In this document: one piece after another, positions 8,502 to 54,573 of the stretch
How the letters are laid out: every line of letters starts with the position of its first letter
Position numbering within the stretch: position 1 is the stretch's first letter
Notes under the pieces: model-generated
What the model was told of the DNA's origin: nothing
What the model saw: only the letters and a program-made list of their open reading frames with translations
The model's database searches: none
Program-made: the position numbers and the translations under genes
NCBI GenBank assembly: GCA_965208615.1
Contig: CBDBPB010000001.1
Coordinates: forward strand, 288,001-352,000
Length of the DNA stretch: 64,000 nucleotides
Source: Spirochaetota bacterium
GTDB taxonomy: Bacteria; Spirochaetota; UBA6919; CBDBPB01
Direction: 5' to 3'

Positions 8502-8849
8502 ATGAAAAAAATTGAAGCTATAATCCAACCCATAAAGCTAGACGCCGTTAAAGAAGAACTCAGCAAAGTAGGAGTTACAAGGATGACTGTTAGCAATGTT
8601 AAGGGCTTTGGAAGACAAAAAGGACATACTGAGTTATTCGGTGATAAAGAATATGAAATTATATTAATTAGAAAAGTTAAGCTGGAAATAATAATGAATG
8701 ATGATTTTGTTGAACCAGCAATAAAAGCAATTATAAAAACTGCCAAGTCGCCTGGTGGAGGTAAAATCGGAGACGGTAAAATCTTTATCTTACCAATAGA
8801 TAACTGTATACATATACGTACTGAAGAAAGAGGTAAAAATGCCGTATAG
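8502..8849 (+). CDS. glnB: P-II family nitrogen regulator
   Basis: MKKIEAII.P.KL, VKGFGRQKGHTE, EY (Tyr51), KVKLE, GKIGDGKIF. Confidence 0.93.
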   Translation: MKKIEAIIQPIKLDAVKEELSKVGVTRMTVSNVKGFGRQKGHTELFGDKEYEIILIRKVKLEIIMNDDFVEPAIKAIIKTAKSPGGGKIGDGKIFILPIDNCIHIRTEERGKNAV

Positions 8850-12542: not shown

Positions 12543-13058
12543 TTAACTTTTAACGCTCTCATCTTGTATAGGAGATGGACCATATTTGTTTTCACCTGGA
12601 TTACTAGGTAAAATACAAAAAACTATAATAGTAATACCAAGAATAAAAGCAATAAAAACAAGAATAAAAGCAATAAAAATAGGTGAAAGAATAATGTATA
12701 GTGCCCTATGATCAAGAGAATAATGCAAGGAGCCAAGTGCCCATAAAAACCCAATCAAATATGAACATAATGAAATTGGTAGAAATATAAGATAACTTAC
12801 TAGCCACCAACCACTATGGTTAGTATCATGGAGTCTACGGACAGTAACAGCTATACCTGGTATTAAAACAGCTAGTTGGTAAATACCATTAACTATTCCT
12901 ATCTGAAACCCAGTACTGTAACTACCAGTGAAATAGTCAATAGCTAAAAGCCATAAAAAGATTATCGTACTAAACAAAACAAAAAACCAATACTCCTTAC
13001 GCCTTGCTCTACCCTTAAAGACAGCATACTTTCTTAAAACTTCAATATACCAACTCAT
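12543..13058 (-). CDS. DUF805 (YhaH-like) inner membrane protein, copy 2
   Basis: WY..VL.KYA.F.GRARRKEYW.F, AVTVRRLHD, G.NKYGP.P. Confidence 0.93.
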   Translation of the reverse strand: MSWYIEVLRKYAVFKGRARRKEYWFFVLFSTIIFLWLLAIDYFTGSYSTGFQIGIVNGIYQLAVLIPGIAVTVRRLHDTNHSGWWLVSYLIFLPISLCSYLIGFLWALGSLHYSLDHRALYIILSPIFIAFILVFIAFILGITIIVFCILPSNPGENKYGPSPIQDESVKS

Positions 13059-13532
13059 ATTTTCTCCTTTGATGGTTCGTTATTAACACTCTCATCTTGT
13101 ATAGGACATGGACCATATTTGTTTTCACCTGGATTACTAGGCGTTATAAGAAAAATTAAAATAGCAAAAAATATAATCAAAAATACAAAATACAAAATAC
13201 ATAATTAGAAGAAAGATCATAGACTTAGTCAAGAAACTTAATAACGCAAACACAGTAAATATATAAAAGCCTCCTATCCACCAACCAGTACGACCAACAT
13301 CATGGAGTCTACGAACAGTAACAGCTATACCTGGTATTAAAACAGCTAGAAGGTAAATACCATTAAGTATTCCTATCTCAAACTTAGTACTGTAAGTACC
13401 AATCAGTAAGTCAATAGCTAAAAGCACTAAAGAGATTATCATATTAAACAAAACAAAAAACCAAAACTCTTTACGCCTTGCTCTACCTTTAAAGACAGCG
13501 TACTTCTTTAAAACTTCAATATACCAATTCAT
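13055..13532 (-). pseudogene. DUF805 protein, copy 1, frameshifted in a 7-bp tandem repeat
   Basis: Same motifs and same AAGGAGAAAATATG start as copy 2; the conserved PSNPGENKYGP tail is in another frame; deleting one AAAATAC unit restores an ORF ending at 13055. Confidence 0.8.
13180..13200. repeat. (AAAATAC)3 simple sequence repeat
   Basis: Three exact units at 13180, 13187 and 13194. Confidence 0.95.
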
Positions 13533-13644
13533 ATTTTCTCCTTTTCTTACTAGCACAGTTTATTAGTATTATAACTTTTATTAAAAATAGCTATATTTAT
13601 ATAGGAGTCAAGAAAAAAAACAAATCAGAACAAAGTCTATAAGT

Positions 13645-15867
13645 TTATTCAGTATCAAGGTCAGCTTCTAAGAAGTCTTCAAAGTAGTCGTTCTGTAAAG
13701 CCCCACGAGGACATATATTAACACAGGTATAACATGTGGTACACTTAAGAGGATCAATAGTAAAAACCTCTCCATTACGTTTAATAGCACCCTGTGGACA
13801 ACCATATACGCACTTATCACAAAAAATACAGGTTCCGCAACTAATACACCTATCAACCTCACTATCCTCATCACCAAAGTAGGTTACGCTTATATTCCTC
13901 TTTGGGACAAGACTATTCTCTGGATAAATAAAGTCAGTCTTACTCAAAAAAGAATGTACCTCCATAGATGCAATCCGACCATCACCCACAGCATTGGTTA
14001 TAAGTCCAGGTTTAATTATATCCCCACAAGCGAATACCTTATTATTACTAGTCCTGAAAGACCTATCCCCAACAAGTACATAGCCCCGATCGTCCACCAT
14101 AACATGATTAGATATAAATGCCGTATCAGGTATCTCCCCAATACTAAATAATACAACATCAGCCTTAATAATAGAGCCATCCTCAAAGTATATCTCTTTA
14201 TCACTAAGACGTTCAACCTTCTTAGGCCATAAAATCTCAGTACCTAAGTTAGTAGCCATTTCTAACTCCTTACCAAATGCCAAAGGCTTTTGTATGTCAA
14301 TAGCACTAACCTTCTTAGCCCCCAGCCTCCATGACTCACAAGCAATATCCATACCAACATTACCAGCCCCTATAACCACAACATCCTTATCAGATAAATC
14401 CATTGCCTTGCCATTGTTAATATCTAGCAAAAACTCTAAACCAGGTATAATACGCTCACCCCCCTTATAAGGGATACGCTTAGGAGTATGTGCTCCACTA
14501 GCCACAATAATAGCATCACTCTTAGAGTAAACTTTCTTAAATAATTGTGCGTCAACAAAAGTGTTAAGCCTAAAAATAATGGGTAAAGACCTAAGCCTGT
14601 TTATATCCTTATCCAATACCTCATTAGAAAGCCTCTCCCTCGGGATAGCCTTCTTAAGCTTTCCCCCAATATCATCAACCCCATCATAAACCTCTACCTG
14701 ATAACCTCGCCTTATAAGCTGCCACGCCGCAGATAAACCAGCAGGTCCAGCACCTATTATAGAAATAAGCTCCTTACGCTTGTCCTTAGCCGTAAGAGGA
14801 GTAAAATCAGGATAATAAACCTTTGCTATCTCCTGTATTTCAACAGGACCGTCTAAGACATTACGACTACACTTATCCATACAAGGAGCAGGACAAACAT
14901 GACCACAAACCGACATCCTAAAAGGAGTAAACTCATCCATAAGTAATTGAGCATCCTCCAACTGCCCAGACCTTATCATGTGTATGTAAGTAGGAGTAGG
15001 TATACCAGTGGGACAACTAAACATACACGGTGGAGTCATGTTAAGATGTCTTGGCTTTTTATGCTTTATATTCATAGCAGACGTATAAAGCTTTGCAAAT
15101 GGCCTATGACCCATTTTAGTTATCTTAACAAAATCTCTATAGTCAATATCGGGCATATTAATATCAAGGTCTTTTGCGTATTCAGAAATAATGTTATTTA
15201 AAAACTCAATATCTGAGTTGTCCATATTGGCAATAAGAGCTCCCCCACCTAATAAATGCTCCTCAACATTACCCCTAATATAAATAACCCCACCATGAAT
15301 ACCAGTACCCACACTATGACCAACAGGAATAGGACTATCATTAAGATTTAATACAACAACCCGTCCCCCAGCCATATACTCCCCGCAATAGTCCTTAGCC
15401 GTACCCCCAATTACTAAAGTAGGTATCTGATCCATGTACTCCTTCATGTGAATACCAGCTCTATACTCAACATCACCCTTTATAAATACCTTACCACCAC
15501 GCATAGAGTGTCCAGGTATCTCACCAGCCTTACCATAGACTATAATCTTACCAGAGTTCATAGTATTAGCCACACCATCCTGAGCATTACCATATACAAT
15601 AAGCTCAAGACCATTCATAAATGCCCCTAAATCCTGACCCGCTACTCCGTATATGACTATCTTAGCGTCTGAGTTGATCCCACCACCAATATACCTTTGC
15701 CCCAATACGTTTTCTAATACTATATTTTTAGAGCCACTATTAATTTGACTCCTTATCATCCGATTCAACTGCCTATAATAAATACCCTTTGCATCTAAAA
15801 TAGATATATCTTTTTCCTCCTCCATAATAGACCTCTCCATTATATAAGCTGACTCCATCATAGACAA
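13645..15867 (-). CDS. Glutamate synthase GXGXG (GltB3) domain fused to GltD-like FAD/NAD(P)H oxidoreductase and C-terminal 2x[4Fe-4S] domain
   Basis: GQRYIGGG, GVANTMNSG, GEYMAGG; PPCMFSCP, CGHVCPAPC...C; IGAGPAGL; IGAGNVGMD; CISCGTCIFCDKC, CTTCYTCVNICP. Confidence 0.9.
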   Translation of the reverse strand: MSMMESAYIMERSIMEEEKDISILDAKGIYYRQLNRMIRSQINSGSKNIVLENVLGQRYIGGGINSDAKIVIYGVAGQDLGAFMNGLELIVYGNAQDGVANTMNSGKIIVYGKAGEIPGHSMRGGKVFIKGDVEYRAGIHMKEYMDQIPTLVIGGTAKDYCGEYMAGGRVVVLNLNDSPIPVGHSVGTGIHGGVIYIRGNVEEHLLGGGALIANMDNSDIEFLNNIISEYAKDLDINMPDIDYRDFVKITKMGHRPFAKLYTSAMNIKHKKPRHLNMTPPCMFSCPTGIPTPTYIHMIRSGQLEDAQLLMDEFTPFRMSVCGHVCPAPCMDKCSRNVLDGPVEIQEIAKVYYPDFTPLTAKDKRKELISIIGAGPAGLSAAWQLIRRGYQVEVYDGVDDIGGKLKKAIPRERLSNEVLDKDINRLRSLPIIFRLNTFVDAQLFKKVYSKSDAIIVASGAHTPKRIPYKGGERIIPGLEFLLDINNGKAMDLSDKDVVVIGAGNVGMDIACESWRLGAKKVSAIDIQKPLAFGKELEMATNLGTEILWPKKVERLSDKEIYFEDGSIIKADVVLFSIGEIPDTAFISNHVMVDDRGYVLVGDRSFRTSNNKVFACGDIIKPGLITNAVGDGRIASMEVHSFLSKTDFIYPENSLVPKRNISVTYFGDEDSEVDRCISCGTCIFCDKCVYGCPQGAIKRNGEVFTIDPLKCTTCYTCVNICPRGALQNDYFEDFLEADLDTE

Positions 15868-15985
15868 ATCCCCCTTGACATAACTATCGTATATTAAATA
15901 TAAGAAAAGCTAACTATATAAAGCAATCTTTATAAATACTAGAACATAACTTTTAATATTATATAAAATATATATTTAGTATATT

Positions 15986-16996
15986 TTATTTTCGTACTAT
16001 CCACAGTGACCTTGGTTCAGATCTTGGTTCATCATGAGGTACCTGTTTTAGGGTAGGACACTTTTCTGAAAGTTCCTTAAAGTAGTTATGTTTTAAGAAA
16101 TTTAATGCACCAATTATTTTATATTCTTTATTCATACCAAGGAATGCTTCAACAAGGTACTGTTCATTCCAAAAGGGATAGTGATGTTCTAATATCCAAT
16201 TATCGAGATAGTCTTTTGGTGTAAAAATATCATGTATATGAACATAAACTCCTTTTTTTAGCATTGGTAAGATTGTTAAATATATTAGTAAAACATCACC
16301 TTGGGCCCTTATTATATGTGAGGAGTCAATAAAAAGAATATCATTTTTCTCTAAAGTGTTAAATATTGAAGAATCAAGCTTTTCTAATCTTTCTCTAGTT
16401 ATTTTAATATCTAATTCTTCTAACCATGGCTTTTCATAAGGTTCTATACAAACTTGCTTACATTGATAGTTTGGATTCTCTTGTTTATTTTGTTTAATAG
16501 CCTCAAGCATTAGTAATGTTGAGTAACCACATCCTACCTCTATAATTTGTTTTGGCTTTAAGAAGCGAATGGTGTTATATAAATATTCAGAGTCTCCATA
16601 TTCAAAATGATAGTTATTATAATAAAAGAAGCTATATTCCTTTTGAGATTGAATAGAGTTTTTATCATTTTTATCCATAGGGATTTTTATTAATTCATCA
16701 TTATAGTTAAAGTTTTTAAGCATATTAAGTTGTTCTTTAACATTAAAATCTATCCAGGGTAATACTCTATCTTCTCGTAGTGATTTATATAAATGAGCTG
16801 GATTAAAAAGAGGCTCATAATAATGATCTTTTATTGGATAAATACCAACTTTTATAAATATCTTTTTAGCTATTTTCATATTAGCCACCCCTTTTATTCT
16901 AATAAACTTGAAAAGATAGCTACTAATAAAAACAAAAGGTGCAATTAATATATCAATAACAGGTAATGCTCTTTGAATTAATCCTAAATTAAACAT
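15986..16996 (-). CDS. Class I SAM-dependent methyltransferase (Methyltransf_24-like)
   Basis: IIEVGCGYST, DILFIDSSH, GVYVHIHDIF, WNEQYL. Confidence 0.88.
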   Translation of the reverse strand: MFNLGLIQRALPVIDILIAPFVFISSYLFKFIRIKGVANMKIAKKIFIKVGIYPIKDHYYEPLFNPAHLYKSLREDRVLPWIDFNVKEQLNMLKNFNYNDELIKIPMDKNDKNSIQSQKEYSFFYYNNYHFEYGDSEYLYNTIRFLKPKQIIEVGCGYSTLLMLEAIKQNKQENPNYQCKQVCIEPYEKPWLEELDIKITRERLEKLDSSIFNTLEKNDILFIDSSHIIRAQGDVLLIYLTILPMLKKGVYVHIHDIFTPKDYLDNWILEHHYPFWNEQYLVEAFLGMNKEYKIIGALNFLKHNYFKELSEKCPTLKQVPHDEPRSEPRSLWIVRK

Positions 16997-17253
16997 ATCT
17001 ATTCTCCTTATATTATCATTCAGTTCAACCTACTTATTTATTGTATTTAATATTGGTGTACGCAACCTTATAATAAATATAGTAGTATTCTTTAGAAGGC
17101 TTATTGGTATTAATTTAATTAAATAGTATATTACTATTTAGAAGAAAAGATATTAAATACAAAAATAAAGTCAATTTGATTTTTACAATTATGTTTGTCA
17201 AAACATATTTACTATATATAACCTCCTTAACATAGCATTAAAAGTCATATTAA

Positions 17254-17282
17254 ATTCTAAATGCTTACTCTATATAAGTCAA
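17254..17282 (-). promoter_or_regulatory. sigma70-type promoter inside the glt cluster, upstream of the methyltransferase
   Basis: TTGACT-N17-TAGAAT on the minus strand. Confidence 0.5.
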
Positions 17283-17326
17283 CTTTTGAATAGTATACTT
17301 TTGATAATTCAATTATAACACTTAGC

Positions 17327-18847
17327 TCATGCACCAGCATGCTTTATCCCAAGAATACGTAGTTCTTCTTCGTTTAGATTAATACCCCTAATCCTATCCC
17401 TATTACCCCTTAGAGCCTCAATAGTGCTAATACCCATAGACCCCATAAGCTCTTTTATCTCTTCAGCCCAAGCATTAAGTAGATTCTTTAAAGCCTGAGC
17501 CCCCTCTTTAACATCAATACGGTCAACCAAAGACGGATTTGTAGTGGTAATACCATAAGCACACTTTCCAGTAAAACACCTCTGACAAACACCACATCCC
17601 AAAGCCAAAAGTACAGGAGTACCAATATATATAGCATCAGCCCCAAGACAAATAGCCTTAAGCACATCAGATGAACATTGCATACCACCAGAGGCAACAA
17701 GACTAACACTAGACCTAATACCCTCATCCCTAAGCCTCTGATCCGCAGATGCAATAGCTAATTCAATGGGAATACCAGTATTTTGGCGTATCTGTAATGG
17801 CGTTGCACCAGAACCAGCACGAAAACCATCAATAGCAATAATATCAGCCCCAGCCCTTGCTATCCCACTTGCAATAGGTGCCACATTATGAACAGCGGAT
17901 ATCTTTACTGAAACAGGTACCTTATAATCCACAGCCTCTTTAATGGCGTATATAAGCTGGCGTAAATCCTCTATGGAGTAAATATCATGATGAGGTGCGG
18001 GTGATAAAGCATCACTACCAACAGGTATCATCCGAGTCTCTGATATGGCTTTGGATACCTTTTCACCAGGTAAATGCCCTCCAATACCTGGTTTTGCTCC
18101 CTGACCTATCTTTATCTCCACAGCAGCAGCCGCTTTTAAATAATCCTCACTAACACCAAAACGTCCAGATGCTACCTGAACAATAGTATTAGCACCATAC
18201 TTCCTTAATGACTTATGAAATCCACCTTCGCCAGTATTCCAAAATGTACCAACCTCATGAGTAGCCCTTGCCTCAGACTCGTGTACATTAAGACTAACCG
18301 CTCCAAAGCTCATAGCACCAAACATAATAGGTATCTCCAACTTTAACTGCGGACCAATATCATCACCATACTTGCTGGGCTTTTTACCTAAATAAGTTCT
18401 AATCTCCATAGGCTCTCTAAGAGGATCAATAGAGGGGTTTGTAACCTGACAAGCATCAAACATTATATGATCAAAATATCGCCTTTGAGGACCAGTGGCA
18501 CCATTACCAACTAATAAAACTCCCCCAATATCACCAGCCTGCCTCCACAAATTGGCCACATGCTGAGGAGTCCAATATCCATGACTGGACGACATAGGCT
18601 CTATCTTAATATAAATAGCCTTCTCTGGACAAAACTTAACACATCTCTGACACGCCCCACATGCCTCATAATTAGCCCAAGGCTTATATAACACCTTATC
18701 ACCCTTCTTTATTGGCTTTAAGGATATCTCTCCAAAAGAGCACTCATGAGCACATAAATTACAACCATTCTCATAATCACACCTTTCTATATTAAACTCA
18801 GGGTGAAACGACGGAGTAACTCTCCAATTGTTTTTCATCTTCTCCAT
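17327..18847 (-). CDS. gltB2: Archaeal-type glutamate synthase FMN-binding subunit (GltB2) with N-terminal ferredoxin domain
   Basis: AMSFGA, NTGEGG, QVASGRFG, EIKIGQGAKPG.GGHLPGEKV, SPAPHHDIYSIEDL, VSVK, C..C..C....C 3Fe-4S motif. Confidence 0.93.
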   Translation of the reverse strand: MEKMKNNWRVTPSFHPEFNIERCDYENGCNLCAHECSFGEISLKPIKKGDKVLYKPWANYEACGACQRCVKFCPEKAIYIKIEPMSSSHGYWTPQHVANLWRQAGDIGGVLLVGNGATGPQRRYFDHIMFDACQVTNPSIDPLREPMEIRTYLGKKPSKYGDDIGPQLKLEIPIMFGAMSFGAVSLNVHESEARATHEVGTFWNTGEGGFHKSLRKYGANTIVQVASGRFGVSEDYLKAAAAVEIKIGQGAKPGIGGHLPGEKVSKAISETRMIPVGSDALSPAPHHDIYSIEDLRQLIYAIKEAVDYKVPVSVKISAVHNVAPIASGIARAGADIIAIDGFRAGSGATPLQIRQNTGIPIELAIASADQRLRDEGIRSSVSLVASGGMQCSSDVLKAICLGADAIYIGTPVLLALGCGVCQRCFTGKCAYGITTTNPSLVDRIDVKEGAQALKNLLNAWAEEIKELMGSMGISTIEALRGNRDRIRGINLNEEELRILGIKHAGA

Positions 18848-18856
18848 TTATAGCTC

Positions 18857-19912
18857 CTAATTCATATATCCAGCTTTAAAATTAACAATAACTGGCTCTC
18901 CACCCTTAGGAGACCATAATTCATCAACCTTAGAGGATAATAACCTAATACTACACTCCTCAGATGAGGCGTAAAACCTATTACCGTCAACAGCACAAAC
19001 CACAGGTCTAAGTTTATTCCTGTCATTCAATATTATAGCCCCATCATTATGAGTCAGAACAATACCAAAAGGCCCATTAACCACTGCAGGACCATATATC
19101 TGCCTCAATAACCTTAGCTTATTATCATTATTTCTGTCAATATCCTCCCAAAGAGGTGGAGCCATAGCACTACAAATATCCTCAATAGGCAAGCTATCCT
19201 TTCTTTGTAGCTTATCAAAAATATAACTTATAACCTCAGTATCCGTTCTAAGAAGGCACAAATAATTATACATCTTAAGCCACCTCGCATTTGTACCATA
19301 ACTGGTTATCTCACCATTATGAACACATGACTTATCCAATATACAAAAGGGATGAGCACCACCCCACCATCCAGGGGTATTGGTAGGAAAGCGATTATGA
19401 GCAGTCCACATATAACCTTTGTATTTGTCTATTCTAAAATAGTCAGCAATATCCTCAGGAAAGCCAACTCCCTTAAAGGCTCCCATATTCTTACCAGATG
19501 AGGCTACAAATGCTCTATCCAGCTGGTTAATGTGCATAACAATCTCAACAACACAGTCGTCTATAGTCTGACCGGGTAATAACTCATCCTCATGAGGTAA
19601 AACAAAATACCTCTTAAAGTATGGTCCAGTCATAATAGCCTTTGTTGGATATACAGGTATCTCCTCTTCATGATAGATCTTTGTCTTTAACCCTAAATAA
19701 TCCTCAACCCTTTGTATAACAGGATCATGACGGCCACCATCATACATAATATGAAAGGCATAATAATCCCTATATTCAGGATAAATACCATAAGCGGCAA
19801 ACCCACCACCAAGACCATTCCCCCTATCATGCTGTATTTTGATAGCCTCCCTAATATGACTACCATCTATTAGTTTTTTATCCGTATTAATAATCCCTAC
19901 AATTCCGCACAT
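18857..19912 (-). CDS. gltB1: Class II glutamine amidotransferase subunit of split glutamate synthase (GltB1)
   Basis: N-terminal MCGIVG, DRGNGLGGG, HNRFPTNT, HNGEI, TDTEV, NGPF, DRNKLRP, SSEE. Confidence 0.92.
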   Translation of the reverse strand: MCGIVGIINTDKKLIDGSHIREAIKIQHDRGNGLGGGFAAYGIYPEYRDYYAFHIMYDGGRHDPVIQRVEDYLGLKTKIYHEEEIPVYPTKAIMTGPYFKRYFVLPHEDELLPGQTIDDCVVEIVMHINQLDRAFVASSGKNMGAFKGVGFPEDIADYFRIDKYKGYMWTAHNRFPTNTPGWWGGAHPFCILDKSCVHNGEITSYGTNARWLKMYNYLCLLRTDTEVISYIFDKLQRKDSLPIEDICSAMAPPLWEDIDRNNDNKLRLLRQIYGPAVVNGPFGIVLTHNDGAIILNDRNKLRPVVCAVDGNRFYASSEECSIRLLSSKVDELWSPKGGEPVIVNFKAGYMN

Positions 19913-20689
19913 TTATGACCCCCTGTTTGTATATACTTTTAATCTTTCATTAGCGATTTCTGTATACTCTTTAGATATTTCTGAGCCAATCCATCTTCTG
20001 CCTAACAAATGTGCTACTTTAGCTGTAGCCCCGCTCCCCATAAACGGATCGTAAACCAAGTCATTTTTATTAGTCCATGTTTTAATCTGGTCGATAGCAA
20101 GTTGCTCGGGGAAAATAGCTGAGTGGTTATAAGCAATCTTATCCTTAGTGGATATACCCCCACCAATTGAGTAAAAGAATACATTACCTAGCTTTTTATT
20201 AGTCGTTCGGTTTACTTTTTTATAATTAAGAGTCCCAGCCTTTCCTCTATTTTTCATATTAGCAAGCCCCCTATATTTCGTTTGCTCTGTAATAGGATTA
20301 AAAGTCTTTGGACTGTCCTTTGAAAAAGCAAACATATATTCAAAGTGTTGATGATAACGCTTACCACTTGTAGGCATTGGATTGTTTTTATAGTAGATCA
20401 TAGTATCGTGCAAATTAAAGCCAACCTGTCTAAAATGTATTGCTTGCTTGAAAGAGGTTAATGTCTCACTACCGTTTTCTGTTTTATCTCCTACAACCCA
20501 GATAATCACTCCACCAACTTTTAATATTCTGTATAGCTCTTTTATTATGCTCTCAAATAAAAAGTTATAGCCGTTATAATCCCTTAAATCATCATAAGGT
20601 GGGGATGTTAAAACCATATCCACAAAATTATCCTCAAATAATTTCATAGTGTCAATACAGTTTTCTTGATAAATAGTATTTTCTTCCAT
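19913..20689 (-). CDS. Orphan site-specific DNA methyltransferase (beta class, N4-C/N6-A)
   Basis: TSPPY catalytic motif precedes the DPFMGSG SAM motif; H.A.FPE; no adjacent endonuclease. Confidence 0.9.
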   Translation of the reverse strand: MEENTIYQENCIDTMKLFEDNFVDMVLTSPPYDDLRDYNGYNFLFESIIKELYRILKVGGVIIWVVGDKTENGSETLTSFKQAIHFRQVGFNLHDTMIYYKNNPMPTSGKRYHQHFEYMFAFSKDSPKTFNPITEQTKYRGLANMKNRGKAGTLNYKKVNRTTNKKLGNVFFYSIGGGISTKDKIAYNHSAIFPEQLAIDQIKTWTNKNDLVYDPFMGSGATAKVAHLLGRRWIGSEISKEYTEIANERLKVYTNRGS

Positions 20690-20730
20690 TTTACTACACT
20701 ATAGCAAATTATAAATAGGTTATAATAGTT

Positions 20731-22134
20731 TTAGTTACAAACTATGGTTGATTCTTCTTGTGTCGGCTTACTGTTTGCTTGCTTCTTAGTAAGAATGCTC
20801 TCTAAAAGAGGTGTCATACAGTTTAGTATTTTCATTTGAATGGCTATATTCCATAATGGTTCAAGCTTTCTCCACCCACTTGTATAAAAGAAATGCTTAA
20901 GTTTATTCCTTAGACTATCATGAATCGAACTGGCTTTAAAAATAGAACCCCATTCATAAAAATATTTATATGCTGTATCATATCCATTTTTTAGCTCCTC
21001 ACAAGTCATACCAACAGGTATGAATGTAACATTTCGAGTATTATATAAATCCCAGTTCTCTGTAATAATCCGTCCAGACTCTTTAAGACGCTTATAAAAT
21101 GCAGTACCAGGATAGGGAGTAGCAATATGAAAAGTAGCCGTTGTTATACCCATCTCTAATGCCCAGTCAACAGTTCTCTTAAAAACGTCTTTATTGTCTC
21201 CATCCAAACCAAAAACAAAGCTAGCGTTAATCATAACCCCAAGATCGTGAAGCCTATTAATGACTTTTTCATAGTCCTTATTAATGTTTTGCCGTTTATT
21301 ACTAACCTTAAGGCTATCAAAGTTTAAACTCTCAAAACCAATGAAAATGCTCTTTAGGCCAACCTCAGCGGCTAAATCAATAAGATCACTATTTAATATA
21401 GAATCTACAGTGGCTGCCCCCTGAAATATTCTATTCATACTCCTCATTTCGTAAAATAAGTTTCTAACAAAAGACTTAGCACCAAATAAGTGATCATCTA
21501 AAAAATAAAGATGTCTACCTTTAAGCTGCTCTATTTCATTTAATACATCATCTAACTTTTTTGTATAAAATGATTTTCCATTCTTAAAAAAGGAATCCTT
21601 ATAACAAAACTCACAGTGATAAGGACAACCCCTCGATATAATAAGAGAGTTCGGAACTAAATATAATCTTCTTTTTATTAAGTCTCTCCTCAAAGGAGGA
21701 ACATCAATTAATGATCTATGTTTAGAAATATATACTTTTTTAATCTTGCCTTTTCTGTAGTCAGATAAAAAAGTTGAGAATATACCTTCTCCAGGACCAA
21801 TAATAATAGAATCGGCATACATCTTTGCCTCTTTAGGTAAAGATGTTACATGCAATCCACCTAAAATAACAAAAATACCTTTCTTACGATAGTGATTAGC
21901 TATACGATATGCCCTATAAGCATTGGATATGTAAACTTGAATGGCAACAATATCAGGATCATCATCCAAGTATAACTTTTGAACATGCTCATTAACAACC
22001 TCTACTTCATCCGAAGGTAGTAAATAACCAGCAAGAGTTACTAATCCCAAAGGAGGAAAAAGTGAATACTTAATAGATCGCCTAATAGAACCCTCTACTT
22101 CATTAAAAGCTGGCATTATGAACTTTATTTTCAT
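20731..22134 (-). CDS. B12-binding radical SAM protein
   Basis: PPLGL..LA, GGLHVT, SRGCPYHCEFC, FLDDHL, GFES, TPYPGT. Confidence 0.92.
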   Translation of the reverse strand: MKIKFIMPAFNEVEGSIRRSIKYSLFPPLGLVTLAGYLLPSDEVEVVNEHVQKLYLDDDPDIVAIQVYISNAYRAYRIANHYRKKGIFVILGGLHVTSLPKEAKMYADSIIIGPGEGIFSTFLSDYRKGKIKKVYISKHRSLIDVPPLRRDLIKRRLYLVPNSLIISRGCPYHCEFCYKDSFFKNGKSFYTKKLDDVLNEIEQLKGRHLYFLDDHLFGAKSFVRNLFYEMRSMNRIFQGAATVDSILNSDLIDLAAEVGLKSIFIGFESLNFDSLKVSNKRQNINKDYEKVINRLHDLGVMINASFVFGLDGDNKDVFKRTVDWALEMGITTATFHIATPYPGTAFYKRLKESGRIITENWDLYNTRNVTFIPVGMTCEELKNGYDTAYKYFYEWGSIFKASSIHDSLRNKLKHFFYTSGWRKLEPLWNIAIQMKILNCMTPLLESILTKKQANSKPTQEESTIVCN

Positions 22135-22217
22135 TAGATACCCTCTCTAACAATCCTCCAATATAACCAGCATTCAATTATTCCAATTCTACTTTAGCTA
22201 CATATCCTAAACCAAAA

Positions 22218-24977
22218 TTAGATAGTGTTAGGAATAATCTTGGAAAACTGATCCAATATCTTATCAGAATCTTTGTTAAACTTATTAGAAAATAAAGCTA
22301 ACTGCTTGTCATACTCTTTGTCAATACTGATCTTTGAAAAAACATTTATAAAATCAATAATCTCTTTCTTTAAAAAAGACCTATCCTCAATATCACTAAC
22401 CATACCAATATTCTTAACCCCAACACCAAGCTGATTCTTATGAACCTTACCCCTAATATAAGACGCTCCAGCTGACATACCACTACAAGCATAATACCCA
22501 ACAGGAGAGTCTATGTCAAAAATGTTTAATAATATTCCAATCCCCCCTTGAGCATACTCCATAAAATAATCACCCATACCCTTATCCTTGCTAAGACCAA
22601 ATATGCCAACAGGTGGCTCCCTATCACTAATAAGAGGTGCAAAGGTTTTTAAAAACTCCTCCCAACCTAAACTGTCAATAAGCCCCTTTCGCTTTTGATA
22701 GTGAAAAAGCAATTCATTAATAATATCAGTCTTTTCCAAACCCTCATACCTTTTAGGATTAATGTTTTTCCATACCTCTGGTAAGCCTGCCTTGAAAAGT
22801 AAAAGACTCCTAACCCCTCCAGCCTTAGCAACCCTAAACTTACCAGAAACCGCATAAGACGCAAATAAATCATTAACCTCACCAGATATGTTAATCTCAC
22901 TAGGGTTAGACGTATTAGCAACACCAACCTGTGCATTACCACGAATAGTCATAACATTTGTATGAGCAGGATATGTAGTAACCTTGGTATCCCTTATAAA
23001 AGCAAAAGAATTATTACCAACTAACCCATGAACGTTTATCTCATCAGCCTTAACCCCAGTACCAATATACCTGTGTCCAACAACATTCTGTAAAGTGAAC
23101 CTCCTAACCCCCATATCACTTGCCCTTTTCATAATTAGATTAAGAACACGGCTATCAACTCTATCAACCCCAACATCAATCTCTAAAAAGTCATTGTTTA
23201 TGCCTTTTAGGTATCCATCGATCAAAAAGCTATTCTCATCATAGCTCTCATTTTCACTTTTAAATATTGCATGCTTCTTTTTACCAGGTAGAATAACATT
23301 ATTCAACTGCTTTTTCCATTCTTTTTTACCAAAAGTCTCATACAAAAGAGGGTCATTACCATGATAGCGAAACCTTCGTGATCCAACAACATCCGCAAGA
23401 GTACTCATACCAAGCCCAGCGGCAAGTCCTTCCATATCGTGGATGAAACTCTTATTCATATTAATAATTCTATTAGAACCCTCTTCTGGATCAATCCGTG
23501 TACCATAAGGACGTGAGGTAATACCCCATGCACATTGATCAGTATGACAACGCTTACAAAGAGTACAGCCCAAAGGGTGCAAATGCCTCATACCCATACC
23601 CACAAAGTCTGCCCCAGCTAAAAAGGTTAAAAATGCACTAAAAGAATCAGTAAGCCCCCCTTCTGCAATAATAGAGACAGACTCCCTAAGCCCCTCTGCC
23701 CTTAAAGCAAAATCAGCTATGTGTGCAAGATAAACAGTATTTAATCCCCTATTTTGTAAGTCAACATGATGAGCCGCACCAGTAGAACCATCACCACCCT
23801 TTATCGTAATATAATCAAACCCAGCCTTTGCTAATGCCACTACAATCTCTGCATAGTTCCAAGCAGTACCATAAGCATCAGCTCCTATTAGCTTGTCATC
23901 CCCCACAACAGCCCTAAGAGTCTCTACCCTCATTGGCAATTCTTCAATAGAATATTGTAAATGTTGTGGATTAGGTGCAGTAAGAGTCCTTAATGCCTCA
24001 ACACACCTAAGAAGAGCGATCTCTAAATCGTTTTTAGGAGCAGGTAAACGTCCTCCCTTACCCTTTTTAGCATCCTGACCATACTTCATATTAAAACCAG
24101 CAAACTTATCCAGCTCTACCCAAGAACCATAACCACCAGACCCAAACTGAATAATACAATATTGAAAAGCCGACTCAAAGTCTGGATGTATAAACCCTTC
24201 ACCTGTGAAAAATGGCCTTTGCAAGCTAATAGACGCCATCATCCTAGCCATAAACGCCTCATGACTATTAGAACCATAACTCTGATTAACATCAAATATA
24301 GGACACTCAATCCTAAACCTTGCATTACGTTTTCCAAGATATGATTGACGTAAGTTACCAGCATACTCATGACGATTATCCCTCTGAGGACTAAGTATCT
24401 CAGCCGCATCAATAAGCCATTCATTGCGTATCTTAGAAGGAAGCTCACCTAAATGAGCAGAACCCACCATAGACCTTCCCTCACTACGTTGTATAGCCCC
24501 GTTAATTACAGAGTGATCACTTAAACTACATCCAATAGAGTTATAATCCCTTTCTTCATATACCTGAATAGCACCTCTAGGACACTCCTTTACACACCTC
24601 TTACAATTACAACACTCCTCCTGAACAATGTGGAGTACCTTATCAACAAATACAGCCTCTTGACCATCATCAGGATATATATGATTGCCATCCTTATCAA
24701 CAGCAATCTCCTCCATCCTGAATACTCCAAAAGGTAAATCAGGTCTGTCTAAATTATGAGTACAGGCAATTACACACGTACCACAATGTATACATCCCTT
24801 ACCTGGTTCTTCGTTCTCAGAAGTAACCTTAACCCTATACTTAGAGCCAATATTACTAATACTAAGCCTATTAGGCTCGTCGTGAACAATAAATGTCTTT
24901 CTTATTAGCTTATTTGCATTATCAGGAAGTTTATAATCGTTTATGATTAAGTTTTCAGGAAGCTTTTTTCCACTCAT
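22218..24977 (-). CDS. Divergent glutamate synthase-related protein: ferredoxin + FMN barrel + GXGXG domain
   Basis: [11 protein letters not shown] / [65 protein letters not shown]; likely start ATG 24977 (MSGKK). Confidence 0.85.
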   Translation of the reverse strand: [919 protein letters not shown]

Positions 24978-26121
24978 AGTCCAACCTTTTAGGAACTCCA
25001 TTATTAATATCAAAGGCAACTACCTTACCCGCATCAGGATTGAATATCTCAATATCCTCTCCAAGAGCATAAGCGGCCATAACAACAGCTCTCTCTTCAC
25101 TAGCCATAAACGTAACCTTATCATTATAACCAATAGTAAATGCTCTTAGATGATCCCTGTCAGTCAAGCCAATAAGAATATCCCCAATAAGAACAATGGC
25201 TGTAGTTGGTCCACTAAACTTAAATCTATTTAAGATAGAGTTAGAAGTTAACTTATGATAAATATCCCTTTCTTTATCTTCCATTAACTCTGCCTCTTTT
25301 GGGAACTTACGGCATACAATCCATTCAATCTCTTTTAAAGAATAGTTATTTTCAAGCAAATAATGCAGTAACTTAAAAATAGCCTCTGAATCAGTACCCA
25401 CATGAAGAGGTATGCCTATTTGCTCTAGAGCTATGGCATTGGACTTATCAGATGATAGGTGTCCATTATGAGTACCAGATACATTACCAAGAGCAATAGG
25501 TTGTGGACCCCACCATAACCCTCTACCCCTACTTGTTGGCCATCTCATGTGAATCTGACAAGCTGTTATATCCCTATCCTCGTACTGAGCAATGTCAAAT
25601 ATGTTAAGAGTATCATCCAACTGAAAAGCGGTTAAAAATGTACCCGAATCCTGACTGCTAGAGAATATCCTCGTATCGTTAATATGGTGCATATTAAACT
25701 CAGTGACCTTTTTTCTTATGTATAACATAGGGTCTAAAATCTGATCAGTATATAACATTCTCTCAGTCTTTGGAGTGGTTACCTGATAACTAAATAACTC
25801 AGGCATATCATATTCATAATACCATTTTTTCTCAACCAAAGGACGCTTTTTATCTATAGCAAAACCCCAACCCTTTAACACATTCTCAAGCTCACTAATA
25901 TTAGAACGATTCCTATACATAACATGAAAATGAAATATATTATCACCCTTATAAGGATATACACCCTTTAATGTAACCCCAGAACCTGTTCTACCCCTAT
26001 ATTGCAAGCAATAAGCAGCATTCAATACATTGCTAAGCTTAAACTGTCCAGCCGCAGTTAATAAACCACATGCACCAGGTGGTATACCCTCGTCCCCACC
26101 ACTAAATGTCCTTATATCCAT
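24955..26121 (-). CDS. Second class II glutamine amidotransferase with a 17-aa propeptide
   Basis: ...PPGA-CGLL, QYRG, HMRWPTS, HNGH, TDSE, SGP, DRDHLR, ASEE. Confidence 0.82.
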   Translation of the reverse strand: MDIRTFSGGDEGIPPGACGLLTAAGQFKLSNVLNAAYCLQYRGRTGSGVTLKGVYPYKGDNIFHFHVMYRNRSNISELENVLKGWGFAIDKKRPLVEKKWYYEYDMPELFSYQVTTPKTERMLYTDQILDPMLYIRKKVTEFNMHHINDTRIFSSSQDSGTFLTAFQLDDTLNIFDIAQYEDRDITACQIHMRWPTSRGRGLWWGPQPIALGNVSGTHNGHLSSDKSNAIALEQIGIPLHVGTDSEAIFKLLHYLLENNYSLKEIEWIVCRKFPKEAELMEDKERDIYHKLTSNSILNRFKFSGPTTAIVLIGDILIGLTDRDHLRAFTIGYNDKVTFMASEERAVVMAAYALGEDIEIFNPDAGKVVAFDINNGVPKRLDYEWKKAS

Positions 26122-26171
26122 AATATATACCCAATTAAGTTGATTATATCAAATCTAAAATATAATAAGGC

Positions 26172-27902
26172 CTAATAAGCTATGTCATCGTAAGATATAT
26201 ATTGCTTATCCACAATGTCTTTCCAGTTATTATCATAGGGAACAATTGCCATTGCATTCCTTGGACAGCCTGTAACACTATCCTTTGTTTGGCTACTTAC
26301 TTTTTCTTTAATAAATTTATAAAAATGACTATCTTTTTTAGCATTCCAATTCTTAGAAAGCTTTAATATGCTCTCATTAGCATAATCACGACACCAATCA
26401 CACTGGATGCATATACCACAATTCCAACACCTTGATGCCTTTGACATAGCAAGATCATCAGATAAAGGTAAATCAACCTCTTTAAAATTGCCTTTTCTTT
26501 CTTCAATGGATAACTTACCCAACCTTAACCTCGCCTCAACAGGGAAGTACCTCTTTTTAATAGTATCATAAAAAGCAACGTCGTCATTATATTTAGGACG
26601 TTCAAGGTTCTCACCCAAATAATTACGAACCTCTATAGCCGTATCCTGTGAAGCCCCTACAGCCCTAACTACCATCCCAACAGAGCCACTATTGCCCTGA
26701 AGAGCATCCCCAGTAATGAAAAGCTTATCCTTGTCTTCTTTTTCTAAAGCGTCTATAAAGATATTATACCCTTCTATCCTATAATCAGAAGTAATAAAAC
26801 TTAAATCTGGCGTCTCACCAATAGCCGTAATAACAGTATCCACCTCCAATTGATAGATAGACCCCTTAATAGGCACAGGACGCCTTCTACCAGATGAATC
26901 AACATCCCCTAATCTCATTCTCTCCATAGAAAGCTGAAGTTTTCCACTCTTAAGCTTTTTTATATCAGTAGGTGCAGTAAGAAAACTAAAATCAATACCC
27001 TCTTTTTTAGCCTCATCTACCTCACCCGGATGAGCAGTCATCTCAGTCATACTACGCCTATAATAAACACTAGGATTAGCACCAAGACGTATAGACGACC
27101 TTGCAACATCAAAAGCTGTATACCCACCCCCAATAATAGCAATATCCTTACCAACTTCCAATGACTTAAGAAGTCCGTTATAATTAGCACTCTTAAAATC
27201 TTGATGGTAATATAAATTACGTAAAAACTCTAAACCCACCTTAACGTCACTTAAGTTATCCCCAGATATACCCATAGACCTTGCTTTTTGAGCTCCAGTT
27301 GCAATAACTATTGCATCATGCTCCTTTATAAGGCTTTTTAAAAAGCCCCAATCTACAGGCTTATCGAGCCTAATATCAACACCAAAACTCTTTATATAAT
27401 TTATTTCATAATCCCTAAGCTCAAAAGGATAACGAAAAGGTGGTATACCTTCAAATAAAATACCACCAGCCTCTTTATGACGCTCGTATACTATAACATC
27501 ATAACCTGCTCTTGCAAGAAAATATGCACTAGATAAGCCGGCGGGTCCAGAACCAATAACAGCAATAGACTTATTCTTTCTATGTTCAACAGGCTTTGCT
27601 AATATGTTATTTTTAAAGCCATAGTCCGATGCAAAACGTTCTAAGTATTTAATATCCACAGCACTGTCAAACTTAGCCCTATTACAAGCAGTTTCACATG
27701 GATGATCACAAAAACGACCACAACCACCAGAAAATGGATTGGTCTCTTTTAATATGTTGAAGGCCTTAAGAAAGTCTCCAACACTAATACTATAAATAAA
27801 CCTGGCAATGTCATTACGTGCTGGACAGCCACCATTACCTAAATGATCTATCGAATAACACGGACTCTTCTTGTTATAATAAATAGGATATAGCTTTTTC
27901 AT
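26172..27902 (-). CDS. GltD-like FAD/NAD(P)H-dependent Fe-S oxidoreductase
   Basis: SPC...GCPA, CGRFCDHPCETAC, IGSGPAGL, IGGGYTAFD, YRR, RCWNCGICIQCDWC. Confidence 0.88.
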   Translation of the reverse strand: MKKLYPIYYNKKSPCYSIDHLGNGGCPARNDIARFIYSISVGDFLKAFNILKETNPFSGGCGRFCDHPCETACNRAKFDSAVDIKYLERFASDYGFKNNILAKPVEHRKNKSIAVIGSGPAGLSSAYFLARAGYDVIVYERHKEAGGILFEGIPPFRYPFELRDYEINYIKSFGVDIRLDKPVDWGFLKSLIKEHDAIVIATGAQKARSMGISGDNLSDVKVGLEFLRNLYYHQDFKSANYNGLLKSLEVGKDIAIIGGGYTAFDVARSSIRLGANPSVYYRRSMTEMTAHPGEVDEAKKEGIDFSFLTAPTDIKKLKSGKLQLSMERMRLGDVDSSGRRRPVPIKGSIYQLEVDTVITAIGETPDLSFITSDYRIEGYNIFIDALEKEDKDKLFITGDALQGNSGSVGMVVRAVGASQDTAIEVRNYLGENLERPKYNDDVAFYDTIKKRYFPVEARLRLGKLSIEERKGNFKEVDLPLSDDLAMSKASRCWNCGICIQCDWCRDYANESILKLSKNWNAKKDSHFYKFIKEKVSSQTKDSVTGCPRNAMAIVPYDNNWKDIVDKQYISYDDIAY

Positions 27903-28047
27903 GTTCTACCCTGACTAATATCCCCATATAAAATATTTAATGTATAAATAAAGGACAATTACAATAACTCAGCGTAAGTATAATAATTTCTTAAAAGGCT
28001 TGTTCTTTAACTACCTTTTGGATGGCTATAAGTGCTAAATATTAATG

Positions 28048-28236
28048 CTACTTTACTTCTTTATGTATTGTATGTTTTCTTTCAAACCTACAATACTTTT
28101 TTATTTCCATCTTACCTGTTGTATTTTTTCTATTTTTAGTCGTTGAGTATCGAGAAACATTTGGAATACCACTATCCCTACACTCAGTACACTCTAAGGA
28201 TATAATTATTCTACTCTCAGCCTTCTTTTTTGCCAT
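28048..28236 (-). CDS. rpmG: 50S ribosomal protein L33
   Basis: [16 protein letters not shown]...[21 protein letters not shown]....HTIHKE; true start at ATG 28236. Confidence 0.95.
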
Positions 28237-28289
28237 TGTTTTACCTTGAAAGTTAACATAAAATAAGTTTTTTTTAATTAGGAGTATTA

Positions 28290-28318
28290 ATAATAATAGT
28301 TTTATCAAAAGGAGTCAA
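28290..28318 (-). promoter_or_regulatory. sigma70-type promoter for rpmG
   Basis: TTGACT-N17-TATTAT on the minus strand. Confidence 0.55.
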
Positions 28319-33139: not shown

Positions 33140-33982
33140 CTAACTAGTATATTTATGCAAACTTGGTCCTGGTAAATACTGCATGCCCAAATAAGTAAAA
33201 AGAATAGCTAAAAACCCTATGATAATAACAATAGCTAACTTTTTATCATCCCATATATACTTTAAATGAAAATATCCCACAAAAGCAAACCATGATACTA
33301 ATGCCCAATTTTCTTTTGAATCCCATCCCCAATAGTTAGACCATGCCTCCTGACCCCACCATGAACCTATTAATAATCCCAAAGTTAAAAATAAAAAACC
33401 AAACTTGCTAACAGAAAAAGCATAAGAACTAAAATTAACAGACTTCTGTCCACTCATAAGCCAATACCAACTAACATCCCTTGGAAATATTAAATATAAA
33501 ATCGCAGACAAAAAAGCTATAAAAAATGCTCCATAGCCCATAACATAACTAAGTACATGAGGTATAAAAAGTGGACTCTGTAAAGCCGCCATAAGAGGTA
33601 ATGCCTCTACATCCCTCTTGGATACCGCAAATAAAAAGGTTAATAGTATACCAAGACTAACAAACACTCCAAGAAGTCTAACTTTAAAAATTAACTCAGC
33701 AATAATATATATAAGAGCAGTTGCCCATGTTATAAATATAGTTGCCTCATACCAAGTCTTAAAAGGCTCTCTACCTGTTGTTATCCACCTATCAACAATT
33801 AGCCATGTATCAATAATAAAAGCCAATATCAATAAAAAAGTAGTAAGGAAAAACATAAGTAAAGACTTATCCACAAGCCTTTTACTAAAAACTAATGCCA
33901 CTATATATCCCAAAAAAGCTACAACAAAAGCTAATAGAGTTAACTTAGCTAATATAGGTAAATAATATATCTGCTCTATCAT
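33140..33982 (-). CDS. ccsA: Cytochrome c biogenesis protein CcsA (system II)
   Basis: ALQS....HV, GSWWGQEAWSNYWGWDSKENW (WWD motif), C-terminal SLH.Y. Confidence 0.93.
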   Translation of the reverse strand: MIEQIYYLPILAKLTLLAFVVAFLGYIVALVFSKRLVDKSLLMFFLTTFLLILAFIIDTWLIVDRWITTGREPFKTWYEATIFITWATALIYIIAELIFKVRLLGVFVSLGILLTFLFAVSKRDVEALPLMAALQSPLFIPHVLSYVMGYGAFFIAFLSAILYLIFPRDVSWYWLMSGQKSVNFSSYAFSVSKFGFLFLTLGLLIGSWWGQEAWSNYWGWDSKENWALVSWFAFVGYFHLKYIWDDKKLAIVIIIGFLAILFTYLGMQYLPGPSLHKYTS

Positions 33983-33999
33983 AATATACTCCTAACTAC

Positions 34000-36456: not shown

Positions 36457-36525
36457 ATTAAAACCTTTATATTTATAAAGTTAGTTATAGCAAGTAGTTT
36501 ACAATGTATTAGCTTTAGGACGAAG

Positions 36526-36801
36526 TTAGTATAGTTTTCTATTTTGAGTTAGCTTACATAAAAACTCTGACTTTTTATGCTTTTTAAGCCTTTTTATTTT
36601 ATATTCAAGCTTATATGCCTCTTTTTTACTAAGCATATCATAAAAAGCAATAAGCTTAACAGGCAGTCTATAACGAGTATATTTAGCTCCTAATCCGTTA
36701 TTATGGTCTTTTATCCTTTTATTAATGTTTTTAGTTACCCCGCAATAATAAGTCTCATCCGCACAATAAACTAAATAAACACCCCAGTCTTTTTCAGACA
36801 T
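36526..36801 (-). CDS. GIY-YIG nuclease (UPF0213/YazA-like)
   Basis: VYLV.CADETYYCG.T..I.KR...HN.G.GAKYTR, A.KLE..IK. Confidence 0.92.
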   Translation of the reverse strand: MSEKDWGVYLVYCADETYYCGVTKNINKRIKDHNNGLGAKYTRYRLPVKLIAFYDMLSKKEAYKLEYKIKRLKKHKKSEFLCKLTQNRKLY

Positions 36802-36944
36802 CTATATACCCTTAGTTAACCTAACTAATTGCTTTCTACATAATAAGTACAACTATAACATCCCAATATAATTTAACTAATTTAAACTAAAAAACATAGC
36901 ACTTTTTATCCCATCAACGCTATCCTTATAAAAAAACCTAAAAC

Positions 36945-37592: not shown

Positions 37593-37611
37593 GTTAACCT
37601 AAAAACAACTA

Positions 37612-37645
37612 CTAAATAAAATACCCCAGCATAAAAGCTGAGGTA
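37612..37645 (-). terminator. Rho-independent terminator downstream of soeC
   Basis: TACCTCAGC-TTTTAT-GCTGGGGTA followed by TTTTTATTT on the minus strand. Confidence 0.7.
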
Positions 37646-37725
37646 AAGATAATTAATAATAAAAAACTATACTCTTGAAGGAGATAAATATAATAATAAC
37701 CCATAACAACTATTTTTAAATATAG

Positions 37726-38736: not shown

Positions 38737-38751
38737 ATAGCCTCCTATAAA

Positions 38752-53512: not shown

Positions 53513-53615
53513 TTTTTATTAATGTGTTATATGATATTAAATTACATTTAATTATTTATAGTTAAATGGTTCGGTAGAACTATCTTTTAGATATAGTTTT
53601 TATTATTAAAAAGTA

Positions 53616-53879
53616 AAATTGAAAATGATAAATTTTATCAATTTGGAGTGAAGCTTTTATGATTAATGAGTTGGAATAAGATAGATGTCATGGATATCCA
53701 AAACCTTTTTTATAAAAAAAAGAGTGTGATATTTATAAACATTTGTTTGTATAATAATATAATAAGCATTATGTTGGTATAGAGTTTTATTAATTATTTA
53801 AAATACACTATCGGAGGTTTGGGAATAAATTATAGAAATGCATGTTATAACTTATTGTTATATTATGAGTTATAAATGG
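53616..53879 (+). promoter_or_regulatory. CRISPR leader with promoter (GTGATA-N18-TATAAT at 53726-53755)
   Basis: AT-rich non-coding region abutting the first repeat; segments are duplicated at 54417-54446 and 60604-60665. Confidence 0.7.
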
Positions 53880-54547: not shown

Positions 54548-54573
54548 TTTAAAAAGTCTTAATTTTGTTTTGC

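Follow-up and report, generated by a model that had tools for sequence, protein, structure and literature searches.

Two putative split glutamate synthases, one of them deeply divergent, encoded in tandem in a Spirochaetota genome

Most of what is known of the split glutamate synthases (GltS) of bacteria and archaea comes from genome annotation, and the locus studied here, in a Spirochaetota bacterium (assembly GCA_965208615.1), sets two very different split versions side by side. It occupies positions 13645..27902 of a 64,000-nucleotide stretch of contig CBDBPB010000001.1, hereafter called the window. The closest bacterial and cyanobacterial references for these genes are the GltBD enzymes of Azospirillum brasilense (PDB 1EA0, 2VDC and 6S6S) and B. 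subtilis (7MFM) and the ferredoxin-dependent GltS (Fd-GltS) of Synechocystis (1OFD and 1LLW). Open reading frames (ORFs) for individual GltS domains also exist in Archaea, where a 2021 review describes them, in its accessible text, as ORFs only (PMC8097209). In Ignicoccus hospitalis, Igni407 and Igni408 encode between them a fusion of a GXGXG, a ferredoxin and a flavin mononucleotide (FMN) domain and a separate amidotransferase, the assembly of which is left open in the accessible part of the report (PMC2614490); as far as the accessible parts of these papers go, the archaeal-type split GltS are described as genes and not as enzymes. The reading that we favor for the Spirochaetota locus, with a probability of about 0.6, is that it encodes two independent, complete, split glutamine:2-oxoglutarate amidotransferases (GOGATs), one of NADPH type and one of NADH type, which would later have been interrupted by inserted genes.

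Nine genes, named A to I in their order of transcription, make up the locus and are all located on the minus strand, in agreement with the ORFs and the order given by an earlier interpretation made from the letters alone (the sequence-only reading). Set 1 consists of A (26172..27902, 576 residues), a subunit similar to GltD and NfnB with flavin adenine dinucleotide (FAD), 2x[4Fe-4S] and pyridine nucleotide sites (Fer4_20 and Pyr_redox_2 matches); B (24955..26121, 388 residues), a putative GltS-type amidotransferase of class II, of the N-terminal nucleophile (Ntn) kind, recognized by profile and fold; and C (22218..25019, 933 residues), a ferredoxin-FMN synthase-GXGXG fusion that matches PF01645 with 174 bits as well as Fer4 families (2x[4Fe-4S]). 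The start of C is uncertain by 6-14 codons, and public databases give 927 residues. Set 2 consists of F (18857..19912, 351 residues), a class II glutamine amidotransferase with a Cys at position 2 and a GATase_2 match; G (17327..18847, 506 residues), a ferredoxin-FMN synthase subunit with matches to PF01645 (425 bits) and Fer4 families (2x[4Fe-4S]); and I (13645..15867, 740 residues), in which GXGXG (108.6 bits), a GltD/NfnB-like module (Fer4_20, Pyr_redox_2) and a 2x[4Fe-4S] ferredoxin domain (Fer4_9) are fused, and the real start of which is probably 10-20 codons downstream of the TTG. The sequence-only reading had proposed two full, co-directional sets of four modules, differing in the fusion partner of GXGXG, which is the FMN subunit in one set and GltD in its counterpart; the first point was borne out by Pfam, tblastn, profile comparisons and the fold of B, with a probable, divergent GXGXG in C, and the second by the domain reading. 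The two sets are old paralogues and not the result of a recent duplication, the identities across them being only 26% (B/F), 32% (C/G) and 26-27% (A/I), and 27% between the C-terminal end of C and the N-terminal part of I.

By homology with described GltS, each set would hydrolyse glutamine at the N-terminal Cys of its amidotransferase, pass the ammonia on to the FMN site and there reduce 2-iminoglutarate with electrons from NAD(P)H, delivered via FAD and Fe-S clusters. In set 1, the amidotransferase B has neither a Pfam match nor a significant NCBIfam match. A conserved N-terminal stretch is common to its homologues in 36 loci and leads to an Ala/Ser-Cys-Gly-Leu motif that lies some 17 or more residues into the protein. 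In an alignment of 25 sequences (24 homologues of B plus F), no variation occurs at R193, N219-G220 or D244, and Cys18 is kept almost throughout (90% or more). We take Cys18, R193, N219-G220 and D244 to be the Cys1, the Arg, the Asn-Gly oxyanion hole and the Asp of class II amidotransferases, with roles carried over from PurF, GlmS and GltS, in which the Arg and the Asp would bind glutamine; B has the N-terminal Cys, Asn-Gly, Arg and Asp by which the class is recognized. A profile built from the alignment retrieved PurF (E 7e-9), GltS (E 1e-4) and also GlmS from the PDB, and aligned the Cys of B with the catalytic Cys of PurF. AlphaFold gave a model of B (mean predicted local distance difference test score, pLDDT, 86.4) that best matches the glutaminase domains of GltS (TM-score on the query 0.66-0.71, E 1e-16 to 1e-13), with values of about 0.44 for GlmS and PurF. 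Sequence and model together indicate that B is a GltS-type Ntn amidotransferase, probably matured by the removal of a propeptide of about 17 residues ahead of the catalytic Cys18. Since this subunit is invisible to Pfam, automated annotation under-calls set 1, as 'glutamate synthase-related' or 'hypothetical'.

The synthase C carries the PF01645 domain together with the expected site residues and the Fe-S Cys motif. Its Q315, K318 and R338 fall, in a phmmer alignment, on Q969, K972 and R992 of the Synechocystis GltS (1LLW), which we take to be residues of the 2-oxoglutarate site, the Lys and the Arg presumably holding 2-oxoglutarate. Counting duplicates, 44 locus rows keep these three residues, and 45 keep a four-Cys motif that is also found in G. 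The last third of C is more divergent: its only Pfam match is GXGXG, with 18.5 bits, under the cut-off of 32.5. Nevertheless, tblastn aligns it with the GXGXG part of I over 268 residues at 27% identity (E 9e-14), and PF01493 is precomputed in the public annotation of the C protein and many of its homologues, and the tail of C was judged homologous to the GXGXG domain, though divergent.

The reductase A has the FAD, 2x[4Fe-4S] and NAD(P)H sites of a GltD-type subunit. It matches NF009410 with 377 bits, below the cut-off of that model, and its best PDB scores are E 7e-70 (240 bits) for NfnB (4ylf_B) and E 5e-48 (167 bits) for GltD (6s6s_G). Its Cys motif is located at the C-terminus, whereas GltD and NfnB have it at the N-terminus; the tail of A matches positions 2-33 of Fer4_20 and aligns to the same Cys motif in the NfnB-like modules of 9bov and 9n5u, so that A looks like a permuted GltD/NfnB module and not like a module with an extra domain. 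Set 1 is predicted to be of NADPH type, according to the usual Rossmann rule, because a YRR following the second Rossmann strand of A is invariant in 41/41 locus rows and aligns with the YRR of the NADPH-binding NfnB.

All four modules are found in set 2, and with canonical motifs, namely the Cys2 of GATase_2, the PF01645 domain of G with a canonical substrate loop and the four-Cys motif, GXGXG, and the Fer4_20/Pyr_redox_2 reductase. F shares 67-78% identity with its counterparts in the main cluster of F-G-I loci. In I, the second Rossmann strand ends in an Asp that is invariant in 11 of 11 locus rows, and by the same rule the set is predicted to be of NADH type because of this residue.

The two sets are found as separate operons elsewhere. 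A scan of genome contigs centred on C gave 40 loci, labelled Deferribacterota, Nitrospinota and some Spirochaetota, and set 1 occurs throughout the sampled Deferribacterota and Nitrospinota genomes. A, B and C stand in the same order in 34 of these loci, the remaining 6 being cut by contig ends, and no conserved neighbour was common to the flanks (64 of 92 flanking ORFs, in 12 loci). In loci L024-L031, labelled Nitrospinota or Nitrospirae, C is split into a ferredoxin-FMN gene of about 525 residues and a separate GXGXG gene. For set 2, scans centred on G gave 61 metagenome and 43 genome loci, labelled Spirochaetota (including Leptospiraceae), Syntrophales, Desulfobacterales and others, with both G and I present in 57 and 40 of them, respectively. 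Within the phylum, 2 of 40 relatives have a full-length C-type gene: they belong to the same order (genomes G001 and G002, 74% identity) and their rpmG-A-B-C genes are syntenic with the window, a synteny that ends past C. Full-length I-type genes occur in 5 of the 40 (44-65% identity), with F, G and I contiguous, and none of the 40 has both full-length genes. Each set appears to be a self-sufficient operon type, because many genomes without the other set have it as a conserved operon of its own.

The arrangement of the window is rare but not unique. An 8,054-bp metagenome contig of low GC content (L093) has C, F, G and I contiguous, with no inserts: the last 405 residues of the C-type gene (65% identical to the C of the window) are followed, past a gap of 58 nucleotides, by F (77%), G (85%), I (68%) and a convergent gene. 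As the same part of C is 66-67% identical to the window in the same-order relatives, the source of L093 would be about as distant as they are. The C-to-F junction is no assembly artefact, since this independent contig has the same junction. The tandem is absent from the other 33 metagenome loci and 34 genome loci with at least 1.3 kb upstream of F, and from 34 C-centred loci in which 1.3 kb or more follows C.

A search for the GXGXG family revealed a second, unlinked operon in Deferribacterota, which we call F'-G'-I'. F' (371 residues) has no Pfam match, begins with Met-Cys and is 26% identical to F; G' is a ferredoxin-FMN protein with the canonical loop, 29% identical to G; and I' is a GXGXG-GltD-ferredoxin fusion of about 780 residues, 31-33% identical to I over its full length, with the same Asp motif, as seen in two Deferribacterota genomes (G041 and G051). 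An I'-type fusion was found in 16 of the 37 other genomes that have set 1, all Deferribacterota (68-100% identity to the query), so that, counting the own genome, 17 of the 40 genomes searched combine set 1 with a system built like set 2. The idea that set 1 is the sole GOGAT of Deferribacterota was dropped once this operon emerged. Six genomes, among them metagenome-assembled genomes (MAGs) labelled 'Candidatus Deferrimicrobia' and 'Deltaproteobacteria', combine set 1 with a G-type subunit (59-63% identity); neither F nor I stood beside that gene in the three of the six that were examined, so this is not a full set 2. In set-1 genomes, some with the label 'Candidatus Deferrimicrobia', the locus L087:6632-9872 (G073), and likewise L086 and L088, has a G-type ferredoxin-FMN subunit (58% identical) with no adjoining amidotransferase or GXGXG gene; in the one locus that was annotated, a Pyr_redox_2/rubredoxin-reductase-like gene lies nearby, past an unannotated ORF of 151 residues, and this arrangement could be a glutamine-independent variant.

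One possibility is that both sets cooperate, by forming mixed hetero-oligomers or by acting together as a bifurcating or confurcating GOGAT, with electron transfer that would involve NADPH, NADH and/or ferredoxin. The tandem kept in two organisms and the 17 genomes with both kinds of system would agree with it, as would the extra 2x[4Fe-4S] domains in C, G and I and the fact that A and I score higher against the NfnB-type modules of bifurcating complexes than against GltD. Yet every module is present in each set, and each set occurs alone in many genomes; in Deferribacterota, set 1 and F'-G'-I' are on different contigs; and the likeness to NfnB would reflect a shared ancestry of the module and not a bifurcating mechanism. 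An NfnA subunit (FNR-like, [2Fe-2S]), the partner that such a complex would have, is missing from positions 13645-28308, the rest of the genome not having been searched for it. We regard such cooperation as very improbable. The sequence-only reading had suggested a hetero-oligomeric or electron-bifurcating enzyme, for which nothing was found in support, each set being a stand-alone operon in genomes without the other. It had also held that its idea would fail if the sets never co-occurred elsewhere and each were an ordinary, independently active GOGAT; the sets do co-occur, in tandem in L093 and unlinked in 16 Deferribacterota, yet each looks self-sufficient.

The phylogeny of the FMN domain was reconstructed from 37 rows with IQ-TREE (LG+C20 with posterior mean site frequencies, PMSF) and midpoint-rooted for drawing only. 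The sampling comprised 11 of the 40 C loci, 13 G-type, 5 classical and 4 FMN-only loci, a third PF01645 gene of the own genome (on contig C3) and the two proteins of the window; one chosen locus gave two FMN rows, and the remaining loci were left out. The C-type domains form a clade with 100/100 support that is separate from the set-2, classical and FMN-only forms and whose branch measures 3.58 changes per column, and set 1 thus appears in this tree as a deeply divergent clade. The G of the window and that of L093 are sisters, with 98/96 support. Several FMN-only rows sit on long branches, and their position in the tree should not be relied on.

Several observations weigh against the favored reading. 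The substrate loop of C is more basic than the canonical loop, as defined by G and the solved GltS, and the change is family-wide in set 1: Asp, Lys and Lys replace the canonical Gly, Pro and Glu/Ile. Taken with the long branch of the C clade, it makes a different substrate possible. Moreover, 32 of the 37 set-1 genomes give two or more GltS-FMN matches, the pattern expected of an accessory enzyme, the partner of set 1 being F'-G'-I' in the 16 Deferribacterota; some Nitrospinota, as well as other MAGs with the labels Turneriellaceae and Spirochaetia, have a classical GltB of about 1300-1580 residues in addition to set 1. The pairing with classical GltB in Nitrospinota fits poorly with a simple division of work between NADPH and NADH, and the adjacency kept in two organisms may reflect a coupling between the operons.

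These points could be explained if set 2 were the housekeeping GOGAT and set 1 a neofunctionalised, glutamine-dependent, NADPH-linked FMN/Fe-S enzyme acting on another 2-oxo acid or in a related reaction. The Pfam score of C, 174 bits as against 425 for G, points in the same direction, and at least one further GltS-FMN gene is available in those 32 genomes, with set 2 itself present in the own genome and in L093. Nevertheless, the substrate-site Gln, Lys and Arg are invariant, the whole catalytic set of the amidotransferase B is conserved, and no conserved neighbour gene hints at another pathway. In addition, no complete GOGAT-like system other than set 1 was found in G001 (98% complete) and G002, where the remaining PF01645 proteins are stand-alone FMN-only or Rieske-FMN forms without amidotransferase, GXGXG or GltD neighbours. 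On balance, a neofunctionalised set 1 seems rather unlikely. The 'second amination pathway' that the sequence-only reading had offered as an option would be conceivable for set 1, in view of the long branch and the altered loop. A related proposal goes further and makes set 1 a new and widespread NADPH-linked, glutamine-dependent Fe-S flavoenzyme with another acceptor, the regular companion of an NADH-type split GOGAT; the two systems would be unlinked in Deferribacterota and would have been joined into a six-gene unit in the Spirochaetota lineage. We consider this version doubtful, somewhat more so than neofunctionalisation as such. Whether the A-B-C clade is a true GOGAT, and whether the two systems divide their work between NADPH and NADH, are the questions that the locus raises; in some Spirochaetota, no complete GOGAT-like system other than A-B-C was found.

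The own genome, 99.4% complete, has a single glutamine synthetase gene, which is also its only gene of the glutamine synthetase family (PF00120), and gave no match to ELFV-type glutamate dehydrogenase (PF00208); for these reasons, its glutamate synthesis should depend on set 1, set 2 or both. The two systems would then supply the glutamate of this genome, probably from different reductant pools. The only other PF01645 gene of any strength in the genome is the one on contig C3, outside the window (C3:118741-120357): it encodes a stand-alone fusion of a Rieske [2Fe-2S] and a GltS-FMN domain (538 residues), also found at L209:2860-4476, which is conserved in G002, groups with a gene of genome G035 and has no amidotransferase, GXGXG or GltD neighbours. 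A stand-alone P-II gene (GlnB/GlnK family) is located at 8502-8849 of the window, on the plus strand, about 5 kb downstream of set 2, with no adjoining ammonium transporter gene.

The single PF00120 gene also bears on another explanation, in which one of the sets would be an N-methylglutamate synthase (MgsABC-like) involved in methylamine use, a link that the sequence-only reading had mentioned. MgsABC is built from three GltB-derived domains, without a GltD-type reductase, which its reaction does not need, and is normally accompanied by gmaS and mgd genes. The same three domain types (amidotransferase-like, FMN and GXGXG) are indeed present here, yet both sets include a GltD-type NAD(P)H reductase, the lone PF00120 gene leaves no candidate for a gamma-glutamylmethylamide synthetase, and neither gmaS nor mgd genes were found in the window. 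It is hard to see one of these sets as an N-methylglutamate synthase, and we give this explanation next to no weight.

Three of the nine genes belong to neither set. D (20731..22134, minus strand, 467 residues) is a B12-binding radical SAM gene (B12-binding, Radical_SAM and DUF4070 domains), E (19913..20689, minus strand, 258 residues) an orphan-type N4/N6 DNA methyltransferase (PF01555, N6_N4 DNA methylase), and H (15986..16996, minus strand, 336 residues), between G and I, a Methyltransf_24 gene (PF13578). D comes from a radical SAM family that is multi-copy in the phylum and has no homologue in the 104 F-G-I loci (E 1e-8) or in the 40 C-centred loci (E 1e-10). Homologues of E and H were likewise not found in the 104 G-centred loci, and none of the 40 C-centred loci has D-I within 10 kb. 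The spacing between G and I is at most 414 nucleotides in all 97 other loci that have both genes. Because D, E and H are absent from all other F-G-I loci, where G and I stay close, they are best interpreted as insertions, present only in the source genome among the loci compared; two inserts followed by one had been proposed from the letters alone, and the lack of homologues at other loci agrees with it. The favored scenario is thus that the two operons became juxtaposed in the Spirochaetota lineage as A-B-C-F-G-I, downstream of rpmG, and that D, E and H were inserted later, in the source genome. The stop codon of E abuts the ATG of F, and a purine-rich ribosome-binding stretch lies within the 3' end of E, just before the start of F. 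Insertions into these operons seem to recur within this order: in L022:8044-10001 (the same record as G001:C67), the set-1 operon is interrupted between B and C by about 2 kb with an ORF of 112 residues and a DUF2711 gene.

Other roles for the inserts were tried and rejected. H has a paralogue in the own genome (C2:35733-36673; 73% identical in amino acids and 76% in nucleotides), but the likeness is confined to the coding region, with no shared flanks, which does not support a mobile element. A role in defence was not retained either, PADLOC having given a weak match for D and, for E, a best model named 'orphan methyltransferase' (266 bits).

The upstream neighbour of set 1 is rpmG (ribosomal protein L33, PF00471; 28048..28308, minus strand). 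Regulatory scans of the region gave no excess over shuffled sequences for sigma-70 promoters (78 matches versus 69 expected) or terminators (7 versus 8); the sigma-54 consensus, with at most 2 mismatches, was matched 19 times versus 16 expected, and none of these matches fell in an intergenic stretch ahead of A, F or I. Elsewhere in the window, two tandem DUF805 genes lie directly downstream of I (12543-13556; about 74% nucleotide identity over about 500 nucleotides). An operon for a molybdopterin oxidoreductase of the DMSO (dimethyl sulfoxide) reductase family (33140-42371) comprises catalytic, Fe-S and DmsC-like anchor subunits, with adjoining ResB/CcsA-type cytochrome c biogenesis genes. 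A type I-B-like cas set (Cas6, Cas8b/TM1802, Cas7, Cas5 and Cas3) spans 52772-60495; within it, about 3 copies of a repeat with a period of 66 form a very short array at 54142-54333, between cas6 and cas8b.

No characterised example of a set-1-type enzyme, a set-2 operon, a GXGXG-GltD fusion or a tandem of split GOGATs was found in the openly accessible full-text literature, subscription journals and supplements lying outside this coverage; the sequence-only reading had likewise known of none for the paired arrangement. The closest known systems compare as follows. NfnAB (4YLF and 4YRY in T. maritima, 5JCA in P. furiosus) resembles the reductase modules, A and the middle of I being homologous to NfnB over their whole length and A having the YRR of the NfnB NADPH site; in contrast to NfnAB, these modules sit here in operons with amidotransferase and FMN synthase genes. 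MgsABC has in common with both sets the three GltB-derived domain types.

Classical GltS have three Cys in their Fe-S motif. Like GltBD and Fd-GltS, each set has the four modules, i.e. an Ntn amidotransferase, an FMN (beta/alpha)8 synthase with an Fe-S Cys motif, a GXGXG beta-helix (probable and divergent in C) and a GltD-type FAD/2x[4Fe-4S] reductase, and the substrate-site Gln, Lys and Arg of the solved GltS are conserved. Yet, unlike in GltB, the large subunit is split over separate genes, a 2x[4Fe-4S] ferredoxin domain precedes the FMN domain at the N-terminus, the fusion partner of GXGXG is the FMN subunit in set 1 and GltD in set 2, and no Pfam match is found at the position of the central domain, the only Glu_syn_central match of G overlying its FMN domain. 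The Cys motif here has four Cys, unlike the classical one, and the identity of the FMN domain of C to solved GltS is low (E ~1e-22). There is also a likeness in layout to the archaeal-type split GltS (GltB1/GltB2/GltB3-like), which, in the accessible parts of the papers describing them, also have separately encoded domains, variable fusions and a ferredoxin domain on the FMN domain. Both sets of the Spirochaetota locus differ from the archaeal genes, as described there, in encoding a GltD-like reductase of their own and in their fusions, ferredoxin-FMN-GXGXG in set 1 and GXGXG-GltD-ferredoxin in set 2.

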